Of a stretch of 26,412 nt of DNA, positions 1-18,020 are shown in pieces; the stretch's first letter is position 1, and every line of letters starts with the position of its first letter. The position numbers and the translations under genes are program-made. The DNA lies in the IMG/VR virus record IMGVR_UViG_2529292890_000002, positions 1-26,412 of that record. One strand, given 5' to 3'. The notes beneath the pieces were generated by a model. It had not been told where the DNA came from, did not search any database, and saw nothing but the letters and a program-made list of their open reading frames with translations. Origin of the DNA: a virus. Its lineage: Duplodnaviria; Heunggongvirae; Uroviricota; Caudoviricetes.

Positions 1-106
1 GGGGGGGGGGGGGTTTTTTTTATCAGGTACTTAGAAAAAATCCCTTATAAATCAACCCTTCTTGCAACAGCCATAAGCAGTTACAAGAAGGATATAGCGT
101 TACGGG

Positions 107-131: not shown

Positions 132-1112
132 TCACACCGCCAGCCCGCCGCCAAGAGGGTTTAACGTTACTGCGTGTTGCAGATAATCGGGGGCCAGGTG
201 AGCATAAACCATCGTCTGTTGTATGCTGGCGTGCCCAAGAATTTGCTGTAACGCAATAATGTTTCCCCCGTTCATCATGAACCAGCTTGCGAACGTATGC
301 CGAAGCACATGCGTGGCCTGCCCGCGTGGTAAATCGGGCTTAACCTGTCTGAGCCGTTCGCAGAAGTTTTCATAATCAACTTTGAACAGTGGCCCGGTGT
401 CGCTGGTCTTGATCTCTTTCTCCAGTTCTTCCGATATCGGAACCGTGCGTTTTTTCCCGTTTTTGGTCTTAAGGAACGTTACGCGCCCGTGATTTACCTG
501 CTCGCCTCGCAGCGTGCTTCCTTCGCCCCAGCGTGCGCCGGTGCTGAGGCATAGCAGTGCCACGCGTCGATCGTCGCCGGTCAGAGTATCCAGCAATTTG
601 CTGATCTCAGATTTAGCGAGATAAGTCATAGCTGGCGGCGCTTCTTTCAGTGGTTCCAGACCCTTACAGGGGTTTTCCTTCCTGAACTCTTCCAGCTTTA
701 TCAACGTGCTGAACATCCCGGATAAGCGGTAAATATCACGGTTGATCGTTGCTGCGCTGATACCGTCCTCCAGCCGTTGGCTTCGGTGCTGTGCAATCAT
801 TCGCTTGTTCAGTCGGTTAACGGCTGGATCACCCAGCGCCCTGATTGTTTTATTCAGGTGCCGCTTTTCAATCTCGCCATTTTCCTGAGTCTGTCCATAC
901 AGCAGCCACCAGGTATCTAACAACTCGCTTAAGGTGCGGCGGTCAACGCTCGCGCCCAGCCATTCCTTTTTGTCGGCGTTGGCTAATACATAACGCTCAA
1001 AAAGAACTGCCTCTTGTTTCTTCTCAAATCGCCTGCGGATACGTTTTCCGTTACGTCCGCGCGGCCATACGTCTACTTCATATTGACCACCTTCGAGCTT
1101 CTTAATCGACAT
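132..1112 (-). CDS. int: Tyrosine-type site-specific integrase (P2 Int-like)
   Basis: 326 aa ORF with ATG start and upstream GGAGGG SD; C-terminal catalytic region HVLRHTFAS...GHASIQQTMVYAHL (H-x-x-R, His, Tyr) and upstream TGARWGE arginine box; sits at the prophage end next to the repressor. Confidence 0.9.
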   Translation of the reverse strand: MSIKKLEGGQYEVDVWPRGRNGKRIRRRFEKKQEAVLFERYVLANADKKEWLGASVDRRTLSELLDTWWLLYGQTQENGEIEKRHLNKTIRALGDPAVNRLNKRMIAQHRSQRLEDGISAATINRDIYRLSGMFSTLIKLEEFRKENPCKGLEPLKEAPPAMTYLAKSEISKLLDTLTGDDRRVALLCLSTGARWGEGSTLRGEQVNHGRVTFLKTKNGKKRTVPISEELEKEIKTSDTGPLFKVDYENFCERLRQVKPDLPRGQATHVLRHTFASWFMMNGGNIIALQQILGHASIQQTMVYAHLAPDYLQHAVTLNPLGGGLAV

Positions 1113-1181: not shown

Positions 1182-1502
1182 TTAACCAGTTTGTTTCTCG
1201 GAGCGGTCTGATCCAGTTGACTCTGGCCCAATGTGTGCGAGGGCCGGTGCGATTTGACCAGCTTGAGGGGCGGTCTTATCTGTCATGAGCCAGAGCGTGT
1301 ATTTTGCGAAACGTGAATGCTGAGTGATTTTAAGCAAGATATCGCTACCAATACTCTCCACTCTTCCTGTCTCGTAATACTTCTGCGTGCCAGCAGGTAT
1401 TCCTGTTAATTCAAAGAATTGCTGCCTTGTTAACCCCTCCGCATCCCTGATAGCTCTGATTTTTTCACCCACGCCGCTTGACGGGGTAGGGATCTCTACC
1501 AT
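1182..1502 (-). CDS. C: Immunity repressor (P2 C-like, HTH)
   Basis: Start chosen at ATG 1502 (strong AAGGAG SD 6 nt upstream) rather than the track's 1541; N-terminal HTH-like segment LTRQQFFELTGIPAGTQKYYETG; C-terminus GQIAPALAHIG...SEKQTG resembles the P2 C C-terminus as recalled. Confidence 0.8.
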   Translation of the reverse strand: MVEIPTPSSGVGEKIRAIRDAEGLTRQQFFELTGIPAGTQKYYETGRVESIGSDILLKITQHSRFAKYTLWLMTDKTAPQAGQIAPALAHIGPESTGSDRSEKQTG

Positions 1503-1577
1503 AACATTCTCCTTAAGGGTGGTAATCTCTACCATTAGCAACCGCCAATATAAGCAGTTACAAGCCGAAATAAGCGC
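1492..1577. promoter_or_regulatory. Divergent early control region between C and cox with direct repeats (candidate operators / Cox boxes)
   Basis: 11-bp direct repeat ATCTCTACCAT at 1492-1502 and 1525-1535 (one copy contains the C start codon); ATAAGCA/ATAAGCG repeats at 1550 and 1571, 21 bp apart. Confidence 0.4.
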
Positions 1578-1602
1578 CTAGCGCCAACGGGGATTATGAC
1601 AC

Positions 1603-1884
1603 ATGACAGAGAAAGATTTAGAGGGGTTCATTGAAGTGCGTCACGCTGTTGACGCGGTTCCATACCCAAAATTTGCCGAATTGATCGGTAAGAAGCCCGC
1701 CACGGTTAAGAGCATGATTGAAGACGGTAAGTTGCCGATCATCCCGTGGAAGAACCCGGAAAGCCTGGGCGCCCGTGCTGAGAACTGGATCTATATTCCT
1801 GAGTTCAACCGCGCAATGCGTGACGCTTACTACAACCGTCCGAGAGAGCAGCGCGATGCTTGGTTGCTGTGGATCGGTCTTTGA
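1603..1884 (+). CDS. cox: Cox-like excisionase / early-promoter repressor
   Basis: 93 aa ORF divergent from C; PYPKFAELIGKKPATVKSMIEDGKLPII and C-terminal RDAWLLWIGL resemble P2 Cox as recalled. Confidence 0.7.
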   Translation: MTEKDLEGFIEVRHAVDAVPYPKFAELIGKKPATVKSMIEDGKLPIIPWKNPESLGARAENWIYIPEFNRAMRDAYYNRPREQRDAWLLWIGL

Positions 1885-10281: not shown

Positions 10282-11994
10282 TTAAAACTCCTCCACAAAA
10301 CTGCCGTTATCGCCGGTCACTTCCGCGCCGATCGGTTCGTTGTAAATGCCCTGCATAGTTGCCCATGCCAGATCGCCGTGATTGCTGCCACGGGCGCGAT
10401 CTGACTGGTAGGTAATAACGCCGCCAGCGGTGACTTTACGCACGGTCATAAACGACTGTGCGAGATCCATCATTCCGGCGTCGAACTCAAAGCGCCCGGC
10501 GCGAATGACCATCAACATTTTGAGCACCATCGACCGCTTAAGAACCGGTGAATAGTTGTATTTAACCGCCTGCGGGAAGAACTTGATCACCAGTTGATAA
10601 ACCGCATCGCCGATCCCCGTGCCGTCGATAGCAATGTGCTGCACGTTGTAGCGGGTGGTGATCTCTTTAATAAAATTGGCCTGCTCTTCGTACTCCATGC
10701 CGCGTAACTGGTGGCGCTCTACCGCGCGGAACTTACCACCCGGCACGGCTGGCGGGGCCAGCACAACCAGACCGGCGCTGTCGCCTTTGCCGCTGCTGCC
10801 GTTGGGGTCATAGCTAACCCAGACAGGGCGATTACCCAGCGGGCGGGGTGCAAACGGGTTCCAGTCCGGCCACGCGTCCGGCATGTAGCCATCAACGCCG
10901 CAGCCCAGAATTGCGTTGTAGTCGAAGGCGCGTTCCCCGGCTTTAACGAACATGCAGCCGTACAGGTTGGCGTATTCGTCGGGGGAGTTTTCGTTACGGA
11001 TTTCATCGGTATCAACCAGATCGAAGCCGAGCTTCACGGCGTCTTCCAGCGTGACTATCTGGCGCCAGATGTTATCCCCGCATAGCTTGCCGTTTTTTAG
11101 TGCCTTATAACTGGTGTCGATATCCACCCGATCGGAGCGGCGGCGGTTTTTATTGAACTGATCGCCAGTCCAGAAGGGATAGGCTTCATGTTCTTCACTG
11201 GAAGGCGTCGAAAAGTAGGTGCGGCGCAGTCCTTTTTGTGTCGCCATGCCTGCGGCCACTGAGCGCAGTTTGATGAAATTACTGATCCAGAAGGCTTCAT
11301 CAAGGTACAGATCGCCGGTGTAGCTCTGGGCCGTCGCGGCGGAGGTGCCGAGAAAATACAGGATCGCACCGTTGCTTAACTCAATGGCATCACCGCCCTT
11401 AAGTTCTACTCCTATTTCCCTTGCCAGCTTCTGAATGAACCGCTTGAACTGGAACGCCTGGGCGCGGCTGGCTGACAGGAATATCTGGTTATTTCCGGTT
11501 TCCAGCGCACGCAACAGCGCTTCGCGGGCAAAGTACCAGGTGGCACCAATCTGACGCGATTTGAGGATAAAGCGGTTACGCCGGTTCCACTGTTTGAACC
11601 AGCGTTTTTGATGCTCGTAGAGCGAATCAAAGACCAGGGCGCGAAGCTGGGTTATCTGTTCTTCGGTGAAATGGTTTTTCGGGGTCTTCGCCTTCTTCTC
11701 TTTCTCCTGGTCGCGTCGCTCATGCCGTTCAAAGCGGTCAAGCTGGCGCGCCAGCAGGTCAATTTCTTTGAAGTCCTTCGGGGTTTTGTCGTCCTTTTCC
11801 ACCAGGCGCAGGTAACGAACGTGTGTGCGATCCTGCACCCGTTGCATGGGGGTGGCTTTATCCCATTCGTAGCGGCGGCGCCAACTGTAGATCGTGTTAA
11901 TGCTCACCCCGATTTCCTTAGAAATCTGAGTGATGCTAAACGCCTGCCAGTAGAGGCTTTTGGCTTTTGTGCTGAGGTCTTCGGCTGTATTCAT
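10282..11994 (-). CDS. P: Terminase large (ATPase) subunit (P2 gpP-like)
   Basis: 570 aa with ATG start; Walker-A-like KSRQIGATWYF; divergent from the O operon as in P2. Confidence 0.9.
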   Translation of the reverse strand: MNTAEDLSTKAKSLYWQAFSITQISKEIGVSINTIYSWRRRYEWDKATPMQRVQDRTHVRYLRLVEKDDKTPKDFKEIDLLARQLDRFERHERRDQEKEKKAKTPKNHFTEEQITQLRALVFDSLYEHQKRWFKQWNRRNRFILKSRQIGATWYFAREALLRALETGNNQIFLSASRAQAFQFKRFIQKLAREIGVELKGGDAIELSNGAILYFLGTSAATAQSYTGDLYLDEAFWISNFIKLRSVAAGMATQKGLRRTYFSTPSSEEHEAYPFWTGDQFNKNRRRSDRVDIDTSYKALKNGKLCGDNIWRQIVTLEDAVKLGFDLVDTDEIRNENSPDEYANLYGCMFVKAGERAFDYNAILGCGVDGYMPDAWPDWNPFAPRPLGNRPVWVSYDPNGSSGKGDSAGLVVLAPPAVPGGKFRAVERHQLRGMEYEEQANFIKEITTRYNVQHIAIDGTGIGDAVYQLVIKFFPQAVKYNYSPVLKRSMVLKMLMVIRAGRFEFDAGMMDLAQSFMTVRKVTAGGVITYQSDRARGSNHGDLAWATMQGIYNEPIGAEVTGDNGSFVEEF

Positions 11995-16878: not shown

Positions 16879-16895
16879 TGTGCTGTGCAGGTCAT

Positions 16896-17526: not shown

Positions 17527-18020
17527 TGCTTAAACCCGATTTGCTGCGCCAGATGATAAGCCAGCATGTGCCCTGGCTGCGCGAGAATCCCGATAATCTG
17601 GCGGTTTACCTGCGTAAAGGCCGTATGGTCAGCACCGGCCAGCGTGCTGCTGCGTTTGAGTATCGCTATACGCTGGAAGTGCTGGTGATGGATTACCCTG
17701 AATCTCTGGATACTATCAGTGTGCCGGTGCTGGCATGGGCGCGCTTATATCAGCCTGATCTGTTGTTTAACCCGGACAGGCAGCAGAACGGGATAACATT
17801 CGAAGCCGATATCCTGAGTAACAGCACGATGGACGTGCTGATCCAGATTCAGACTGATGAAGCGGTGATCGTCACCCGTGAAGATGGCGAGATCGTCACC
17901 CGTCACCGTGCTGACCCTGCGCCGGGGCCAGAAATTGGCGCGTGGTCACTGGTATTTGTTGATGAGGTCAGCGGCGAAACATGGCAGGACAACAAACCGA
18001 TCCCCTCTTCCAGCAGTTAG
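17526..18020 (+). CDS. R: Tail completion protein R (P2 gpR-like)
   Basis: 164 aa; N-terminus MLKPDLLRQ and VPVLAW...QPD resemble P2 gpR as recalled; start overlaps the spanin stop (TAATG). Confidence 0.8.
   Translation: MLKPDLLRQMISQHVPWLRENPDNLAVYLRKGRMVSTGQRAAAFEYRYTLEVLVMDYPESLDTISVPVLAWARLYQPDLLFNPDRQQNGITFEADILSNSTMDVLIQIQTDEAVIVTREDGEIVTRHRADPAPGPEIGAWSLVFVDEVSGETWQDNKPIPSSSS

Follow-up and report, generated by a model that had tools for sequence, protein, structure and literature searches.

Two direct repeats at the start of the C repressor gene form a probable early-promoter operator in a P2-like prophage

The switch region and its duplicated element

The DNA analysed here, referred to as the window, is a stretch of 26,412 nucleotides from a Caudoviricetes virus (IMG/VR record IMGVR_UViG_2529292890_000002). 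Near one of its ends, three genes are arranged in the order of the phage P2 switch, with the repressor gene C and the gene cox diverging from each other beside a P2-type integrase gene:

132..1112, minus strand: int, integrase (Pfam Phage_integrase, E = 2e-19)
1182..1502, minus strand: C, immunity repressor of 106 aa, homologue of P2 C, with the recognition helix AGTQKYYETGR
1603..1884, plus strand: cox, first gene of the early operon (PF10743, Phage_Cox, E = 2e-23), predicted to be transcribed from the early promoter Pe

The C protein belongs to the P2 C homologues of about 100 residues that carry an N-terminal helix-turn-helix (HTH) motif; it matches the P2 C structures PDB 2XCJ and 2L49 over residues 8-106 with 48% identity (phmmer, E = 6e-26), and a tblastn search with C retrieved 140 phage records, those of P2 and WPhi C among them. 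The nearest phages are peduoviruses, namely Enterobacter phage phiT5282H (97.6% over positions 1100-2000) and Salmonella phages SEN4 and SEN5 (94.8%). The paper on SEN4 and SEN5 contains nothing on the repressor, the operator or Cox, and nothing on the switch of close relatives was found in the papers searched.

An 11-nt sequence, ATGGTAGAGAT, is present twice on the minus strand, at 1535..1525 and at 1502..1492, with a start-to-start distance of 33 bp, and no further exact copy occurs in the 26.4-kb window. The minus strand reads ...TGCTA ATGGTAGAGAT TACCACCCTTAAGGAGAATGTT ATGGTAGAGAT CCCTACCCCGTCAAGC..., in which the 22 nt separating the copies, TACCACCCTTAAGGAGAATGTT, are themselves unrepeated and contain AAGGAG at 1514..1509. 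Both the duplication and the AAGGAG in the interval had been described in an earlier note on this DNA and are confirmed at these positions. The repeat is longer than the exact 11-mer that was first noted, since the plus-strand sequences GGGTAGGGATCTCTACCAT (1484-1502) and GGGTGGTAATCTCTACCAT (1517-1535) are identical at 16 of 19 positions with the same spacing. The span of 1488-1541 proposed in that note is therefore slightly off; the repeat proper extends over 1484-1535, and position 1541 is only the TTG chosen by the ORF tool. The mechanical ORF from this TTG reads MLMVEITTLKENVMVEIPT, in which MVEI appears twice, as had been remarked. The two copies correspond to two units with the common frame GGT-N10-ACC:

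1485..1500, no strand: predicted operator unit O1, GGTAGGGATCTCTACC, an imperfect 16-bp palindrome (7/8 pairs; extended copy 1484-1502, exact 11-mer 1492-1502)
1518..1533, no strand: predicted operator unit O2, GGTGGTAATCTCTACC, with 5/8 palindromic pairs, 33 bp from O1 (extended copy 1517-1535, exact 11-mer 1525-1535)

Taken alone, the repeat is only modestly unusual and its genome-wide rarity is weak evidence: approximately 20% of random 26-kb sequences hold an exact 11-mer direct pair 12-50 bp apart, and 6.5% hold a direct pair with 16/19 identity. Because the repeat alone is not rare, its significance must come from its position and from comparative data. In an anchored test, in which O1 was fixed relative to the predicted Pe -35 and its match then sought in the sequence downstream, the pair was recovered with 12/14 identity at a spacing of 33 bp (null P = 0.004), and the published operators of P2 (22 bp) and WPhi (34 bp), used as positive controls, were both recovered. 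Tandem Repeats Finder detected nothing in 1400-1700, the boxes and units in this region being too short or too divergent for the program.

Predicted promoters and the start codon of C

Promoter scans of the region gave the following candidates for Pe and for the repressor promoter, Pc:

1478..1483, plus strand: predicted Pe -35, TTGACG, inside C codons 7-8
1502..1507, plus strand: predicted Pe -10, TAACAT, after an 18-nt spacer, from a consensus scan only
1547..1552, minus strand: candidate Pc -10, TATATT, with a poor -35 and a predicted start near 1540, from a looser scan
1601..1593, minus strand: alternative candidate Pc, extended -10 TGTCATAAT, from the looser scan

The predicted Pe (TTGACG-18-TAACAT) faces cox and encloses the first copy, and the second copy begins 10 nt past the -10 hexamer, so that the order on the cox strand is TTGACG, O1, TAACAT, 10 nt, and O2. 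Two direct units with centres 33 bp apart, within the 22-34 bp of the studied phages, thus flank the predicted early-promoter -10, as the units do in P2 and WPhi, those of P2 Hy dis flanking the -35. The Pe match is 9/12 to the consensus, a level at which the same scan yields as many sites in shuffled sequences. A TTGACN at the Pe -35 position is found in 28 of 30 sequences (the window and 27 of 29 loci) and also in 51 distinct viral-contig switch sequences; anchored on TTGACN, the same plan of -35, unit, -10, approximately 10 nt, and unit is observed in all of these. The predicted Pe start lies near 1514 and coincides with the Shine-Dalgarno sequence of C, and the first T of the Pe -10 is the complement of the A in the C start codon. 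The arrangement is very compact: O1 fills the spacer between the predicted -35 and -10 and at the same time encodes C codons 1-6, codons 7-8 form the predicted -35, and the start codon abuts the -10, while O2 is located just downstream of the predicted Pe start within the 5' leader of C. The initial promoter scan gave no minus-strand promoter for Pc, both candidates listed above being products of the looser one, and the positions of Pe and Pc alike are predictions.

Three further elements concern the translation start of C:

1500..1502, minus strand: C start codon, ATG of the downstream copy
1509..1514, minus strand: Shine-Dalgarno sequence AAGGAG of C, 6 nt upstream of the 1502 ATG
1533..1535, minus strand: upstream ATG without a Shine-Dalgarno sequence, read as the flank of O2 and not as a start

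For comparison, a clade was defined by C proteins that begin with MV..., comprising 45 switch sequences (the window, 17 identical copies, and 27 others), which reduce to 16 distinct sequences. All 16 contain the downstream ATG together with a GGAG-type Shine-Dalgarno sequence located 5-8 nt before it. The codon at the same place in the upstream copy is ATG in 11, ACG in 4 and AGG in 1; because the units are spaced by 32, 33 or 34 bp, 9 of the 16 sequences have the upstream copy in a different frame, and in 6 of those 9 a stop intervenes before the downstream ATG. An upstream start that is conserved, in frame and furnished with a ribosome-binding site was therefore not found in the clade. Furthermore, residue 8 of C aligns with residue 2 of P2 C, and P2 C is 6 residues shorter than even the short form. 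Outside this clade, a sister group (L007, L008, L068 and L069; L-numbers denote compared loci) possesses neither the ATG at the O1 flank nor the GGAG, and its start is a P2-like ATG overlapping the -35.

These data bear on the alternative that both ATGs are used, with C produced as isoforms of 106 and 117 aa and the repeat being a duplicated initiation region. In its favor, every member of the window's own immunity class has the upstream ATG, in frame and without an intervening stop (MVEITTLKENVM), the annotators of SEN4 and SEN5 selected it (354-nt CDS), and it would be included in the transcript from either Pc candidate; as neither candidate is decisive, transcript position provides no argument against it. 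By contrast, the upstream ATG lacks a Shine-Dalgarno sequence, it is replaced by ACG or AGG in 5 of the 16 distinct sequences and displaced from the frame at spacings of 32 or 34 bp, the annotation of phiT5282H takes the downstream ATG (321 nt), and the similarity with P2 C begins only within the short form. Moreover, AAGGAG occurs once, and the repeat is hence not a duplicated initiation region. We consider this alternative very improbable. A translation start at 1502 is well supported by the comparison, in agreement with the placement in the earlier note and with its observation that only the downstream copy has a Shine-Dalgarno sequence, and it gives a C of 106 aa and accounts for the conflicting records (321 vs 354 nt) of near-identical phages. 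The upstream ATG appears to be a by-product of the operator, namely the ACC-AT flank of O2 as seen from the opposite strand, and a minor N-extended isoform of C in the window's class is formally possible.

Residues 2-6 of C are encoded by O1, and the N-terminal peptide tracks the class (MVEIPT, MVSNET, MVSYES, MVTTAT). Loci L067 and L071 keep two ATGs, the new one and the ancestral one that overlaps the -35 (M7), which suggests that in this clade the start has moved upstream, into the operator.

Co-variation of the repeated units with the repressor

The clade was divided into four specificity classes by the residue (Y, H, Q or F) aligned with Tyr36 of P2 C, which is among the base-contacting residues of helix 3 in the P2 C structure:

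Class Y (window): recognition helix AGTQKYYETGR; arms GGTAGAGAT, GGTAGGGAT, GGTGGTAAT; core GGTRGNDAT
Class H: recognition helix AGTQKHYEMGR; arms GGTCTCAAT, GGTATCAAT; core GGTMTCAAT
Class Q: recognition helix ASTQKQYETGR; arms GGTGTCAAT; core GGTGTCA; one O2 is the perfect palindrome GGTGTCAATTGACACC
Class F: recognition helix V(G/V)TQKFYETGR; arms GGTTGCAT, GGTTAC; core GGTTGCA/GGTTAC

The pair of units recurs, with altered sequence, in every relative of the clade. The class-specific core is present in both units in every class, with a spacing kept at 32-34 bp, and it changes together with the recognition helix of C, so that the operator sequence follows the helix by immunity class in all four. 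Natural exchanges separate this association from that with Cox. In L056-L058 and L065, Cox is 96-100% identical to that of the window and the Pc-side spacer is the same, and these loci nevertheless carry repressors of class H or F with matching repeats, whereas L004 and L043 have the C and the repeats of the window with a different first early gene. Comparison of the window with L057, which has the same Cox and int, yields 95-100% identity everywhere except in one block with 55-80% identity, whose edge lies just beyond O2:

1300..1539, no strand: immunity block comprising O2, O1 and the N-terminal two-thirds of C, the only stretch divergent from L057

Owing to this natural swap and to the confinement of the divergence to 1300-1539, the repeats are assigned to the immunity module together with C.

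A repeat arising by chance, or a neutral local duplication of 33 bp without function, would be in keeping with the frequencies in random 26-kb sequences given above, although it would not explain why the repeat occupies the same position at a spacing of 32-34 bp in every member of the clade, why both copies change in concert and with the recognition helix, or why the 22 nt between the copies are not repeated; together with the anchored test (P = 0.004), these observations leave chance or neutral duplication with hardly any probability. A similarly slight probability is given to the reading of the repeats as sites for Cox (or Int/IHF) rather than for C. Proteins of the Cox family do bind direct repeats in this intergenic region and repress Pe at high concentration. 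However, the repeats differ under an almost or fully identical Cox, as described above, and Cox boxes form series of at least 4-6 copies with a period of 10-11 bp, located over Pc and at att, whereas the O1/O2 pair comprises two copies 33 bp apart. The arm sites of P2-type Int (tgTGGaCa) are likewise unlike the repeat. A better candidate for Cox is a separate array with 10-bp periodicity (GCTTRT), located beside O2 and near att:

1546..1575, minus strand: three 10-bp-periodic boxes GCTTATTTCG GCTTGTAACT GCTTATATTG, candidate Cox boxes over the candidate Pc -10

The three boxes are conserved across the C classes that share the window's Cox, and GCTTRTNNNNGCTTRT, with at most one mismatch, has 6 occurrences vs 0.55 expected. 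The boxes differ in sequence from the P2 consensus TTAAAG/CNCA; they are probably the Cox boxes of the window phage at Pc and att. A 15/16 copy of GCTTGTAACTGCTTAT is found just beyond the 3' end of int (73-88, minus strand), where it adjoins two TTGTCTACA repeats resembling the arm sites of P2-type Int.

The least credible reading, in which the quasi-palindromic units act as RNA hairpins, in the C leader or in the Pe transcript, that govern translation or stability, draws on the ability of each unit to form a short hairpin and on a minimum-free-energy fold that pairs GGUAG with CUACC beside the AUG, but it was rejected because the 80-nt C leader (-17.8 kcal/mol, z = -0.45) folds no better than its shuffles and has no Rfam match at E up to 1, while a dyad in the DNA explains the co-variation of the arms equally well and the fact that the units co-vary with the helix favors recognition of DNA.

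A probable bipartite operator of dyad-symmetric units

We therefore regard the two copies as very probably the bipartite Pe operator of a P2-like prophage, bound by the product of the adjacent C gene. The suggestion in the earlier note that the repeats are operator elements for C is thus supported by the arrangement of the units, which bracket the predicted Pe -10 as in WPhi, and by their co-variation with the helix of C and not with Cox. We infer actual binding by C and its stoichiometry as follows. Each unit would most likely accommodate a single symmetric dimer of C, whose two recognition helices would enter successive major grooves, and the distance of 33 bp between the centres (approximately three helical turns) would position two dimers on the same face of the DNA, bracketing the -10 and +1. 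With C on O1 and O2, RNA polymerase would be excluded from Pe, and lysogeny and immunity would be maintained. Pc is predicted to fire convergently through the same DNA, for which reason O2 is part of the C leader and the first six codons of C come from O1. The location of O2 in or near the start of the Pc transcript would also place it for negative autoregulation, as described for P2. The switch is accordingly of an ordinary kind in a compact layout, with one site containing the start codon of the repressor itself.

The units differ from the published description of the family in their symmetry. In the P2 C literature, the sites are called non-palindromic direct repeats, and their reading by a symmetric dimer is described as puzzling; O1 (7/8 pairs) and O2 (5/8 pairs) do not conform to this description, and all 29 distinct units of the clade have 4-8 complementary pairs of 8. 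For the inner five pairs, the mean complementarity of the arms is 2.9/5 within a unit and 3.1/5 within a class, and it decreases to 1.5/5 across classes, close to the random value of 1.25. The complementarity of the inner pairs is class-specific, indicating that the two arms co-vary, which is what a two-fold symmetric dimer reading both arms would predict. Each unit is thus probably a full dimer site and not a non-palindromic half-site, the exact 11-mer being one arm of a unit (ATCTCTACC) plus AT. Of the operator half-sites envisaged in the earlier note, the operator is supported and the half-site is probably a misnomer for O1 and O2, each unit being itself a 16-bp imperfect inverted repeat; for the same reason, its statement that the P2 C repressor binds direct rather than inverted repeats fits the arrangement of the two units and not their internal structure. 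With only 5/8 pairs in O2, one of its arms may be read weakly, as has been proposed for P2. That the units are non-palindromic describes the three phages studied and is not a requirement of function. Palindromic units were described in none of the P2-family papers searched. Karlsson et al. reportedly distinguished seven immunity classes in 2006.

We lean, with some reservation, toward the general view that in this clade, and apparently in several other classes as well, the so-called half-sites are complete dyad-symmetric 16-bp dimer sites. If this is true, the P2 case of a symmetric dimer on non-palindromic direct repeats would represent degenerate tandem palindromic operators in which one arm has decayed; furthermore, the first six codons of C would be operator, and residues 3-5 would therefore shift with immunity specificity (EIP, SNE, SYE, TTA and so on).

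In several other P2-type C classes (L011, L013, L014, L017-L019, L022, L076, L087 and others), the units form an inverted pair around the Pe -10, and direct repeats are therefore not universal in the P2-type family. One example, GGTTCCTACCTTGAGAC and GGTCTAAAGGTTAGAACC, matches at 11/14 positions in inverted vs 8-9 in direct orientation (null P = 0.008), and in the L-413C class O2 is the perfect 18-bp palindrome GGAACCTATATAGGTTCC.

Among characterized switches, that of WPhi is closest to the window (Liu and Haggard-Ljungquist; Ahlgren-Berg et al., 2007, PMC1904263; Henriksson-Peltola et al., 2007, PMC1904268). Its mapped Pe operator reads TTGACA-GTAACC-TATTGGTGAC-T-TATATT followed by a second TATTGGTGAC, i.e., 10-bp sites 34 bp apart that flank the -10 (PMC1904263; PMC1904268). 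The two systems share a homologous C of approximately 100 aa in the int-C-cox context, convergent Pe and Pc, and two direct units separated by about three turns of the helix (34 vs 33 bp), O1 occupying the spacer between the Pe -35 and -10 and O2 following just past the start. They differ in the recognized sequence (TATTGGTGAC in WPhi vs GGTRGNDAT arms in the window), hence in immunity class; in the units, described as 10-bp non-palindromic half-sites in WPhi and forming 16-bp quasi-palindromes in the window; in the C start, which is just beyond the Pe -35 in WPhi and inside O1 in the window, with the -35 inside the ORF; and in the C-cox spacer (approximately 152 vs 100 nt). In P2 itself (NC_001895; Massad et al., 2010, PMC2995052), C is homologous, two units flank the Pe -10, and Pc has a poor -35; the reference record NC_001895 annotates Pc, O2, the Pe -10, O1 and the Pe -35 in the same order as in the window. 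The P2 units are 8 bp long (GTTTAGAT), 22 bp apart and called non-palindromic, whereas the window has quasi-palindromes of 16 bp at a distance of 33 bp. The start codon of C also differs, overlapping the Pe -35 in P2 and lying 20 nt further upstream, within O1, in the window. The P2 C footprint shows four protected patches, interpreted as four monomers, and the P2 model holds that one symmetric dimer binds per unit and that binding is cooperative (PMC2995052). P2 Hy dis (PMC1904268) has a repressor of the same family and two direct units, although these are of 8 bp, 26 bp apart (2.5 turns), and on either side of the -35 rather than the -10.

For the mode of action of the units, the best match is probably provided, by analogy, by the tandem palindromes of C.Esp1396I and of the lambdoid operators (434 cI, P22 c2), each palindrome binding one HTH dimer with cooperativity between dimers, and the fold is similar to that of P2 C (PMC2995052). 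These systems are unrelated to the window, with a spacing of 15 bp in C.Esp1396I and no convergent Pe and Pc, and the likeness is restricted to the mechanism. In comparison with P2, WPhi and P2 Hy dis, the switch of the window would have an operator of the known P2/WPhi type that represents, along with its sister classes, a new immunity class; what is modestly new is the position of the C start codon within O1 and the dyad symmetry of the units.

The assignment defines the predicted operator, and hence the predicted immunity specificity, of a P2-like group represented in prophages of Enterobacter, Salmonella, Erwinia and Kosakonia. At least three sister classes, in which operators and recognition helices differ readably, constitute a natural data set for a recognition code. 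In addition, the structural papers on P2 C have not settled the manner in which direct repeats are read by a symmetric dimer, a matter to which the quasi-palindromic units are relevant; a symmetric 16-bp site would also be better suited to co-crystallization than the P2 operator.

Several minor observations were made elsewhere in the window and in its relatives. Distal operator copies, such as those used for looping by 186 CI, were not detected: the 16-bp consensus is exact only at O1 and O2 within the window, and two weak matches, one at 1334-1349 inside C, only approximately 150 bp from O1 (GCAAGATATCGCTACC, 2 mismatches), and one at 11113-11128 (GGTGTCGATATCCACC, 1 mismatch), are about the number expected by chance (1.24). 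One or more extra ORFs are present between the Pc/box region and cox in L004, L005, L043, L049, L050-L052 (SEN4/5 type), L055, L059, L062 and L066, with N-termini MRRLAQMSGRLEQ... or MVMKHEGR..., and also in L002 (2008-2803); the SEN5 insert at this place is 817 bp. These inserted ORFs, which the window lacks, are moron-like and stand first among the early genes under Pe. On the plus strand, positions 1-21 consist of 13 G residues followed by 8 T residues, at the edge beside the att/int end, and this run could be a contig-end artefact or a junction feature. Finally, two direct repeats are located in the late-gene part: a 13-nt exact repeat, GATCGTCACCCGT, at 17867-17903 with copies 24 bp apart, and a second pair with 16/19 identity near 16890 with a spacing of 38 bp.
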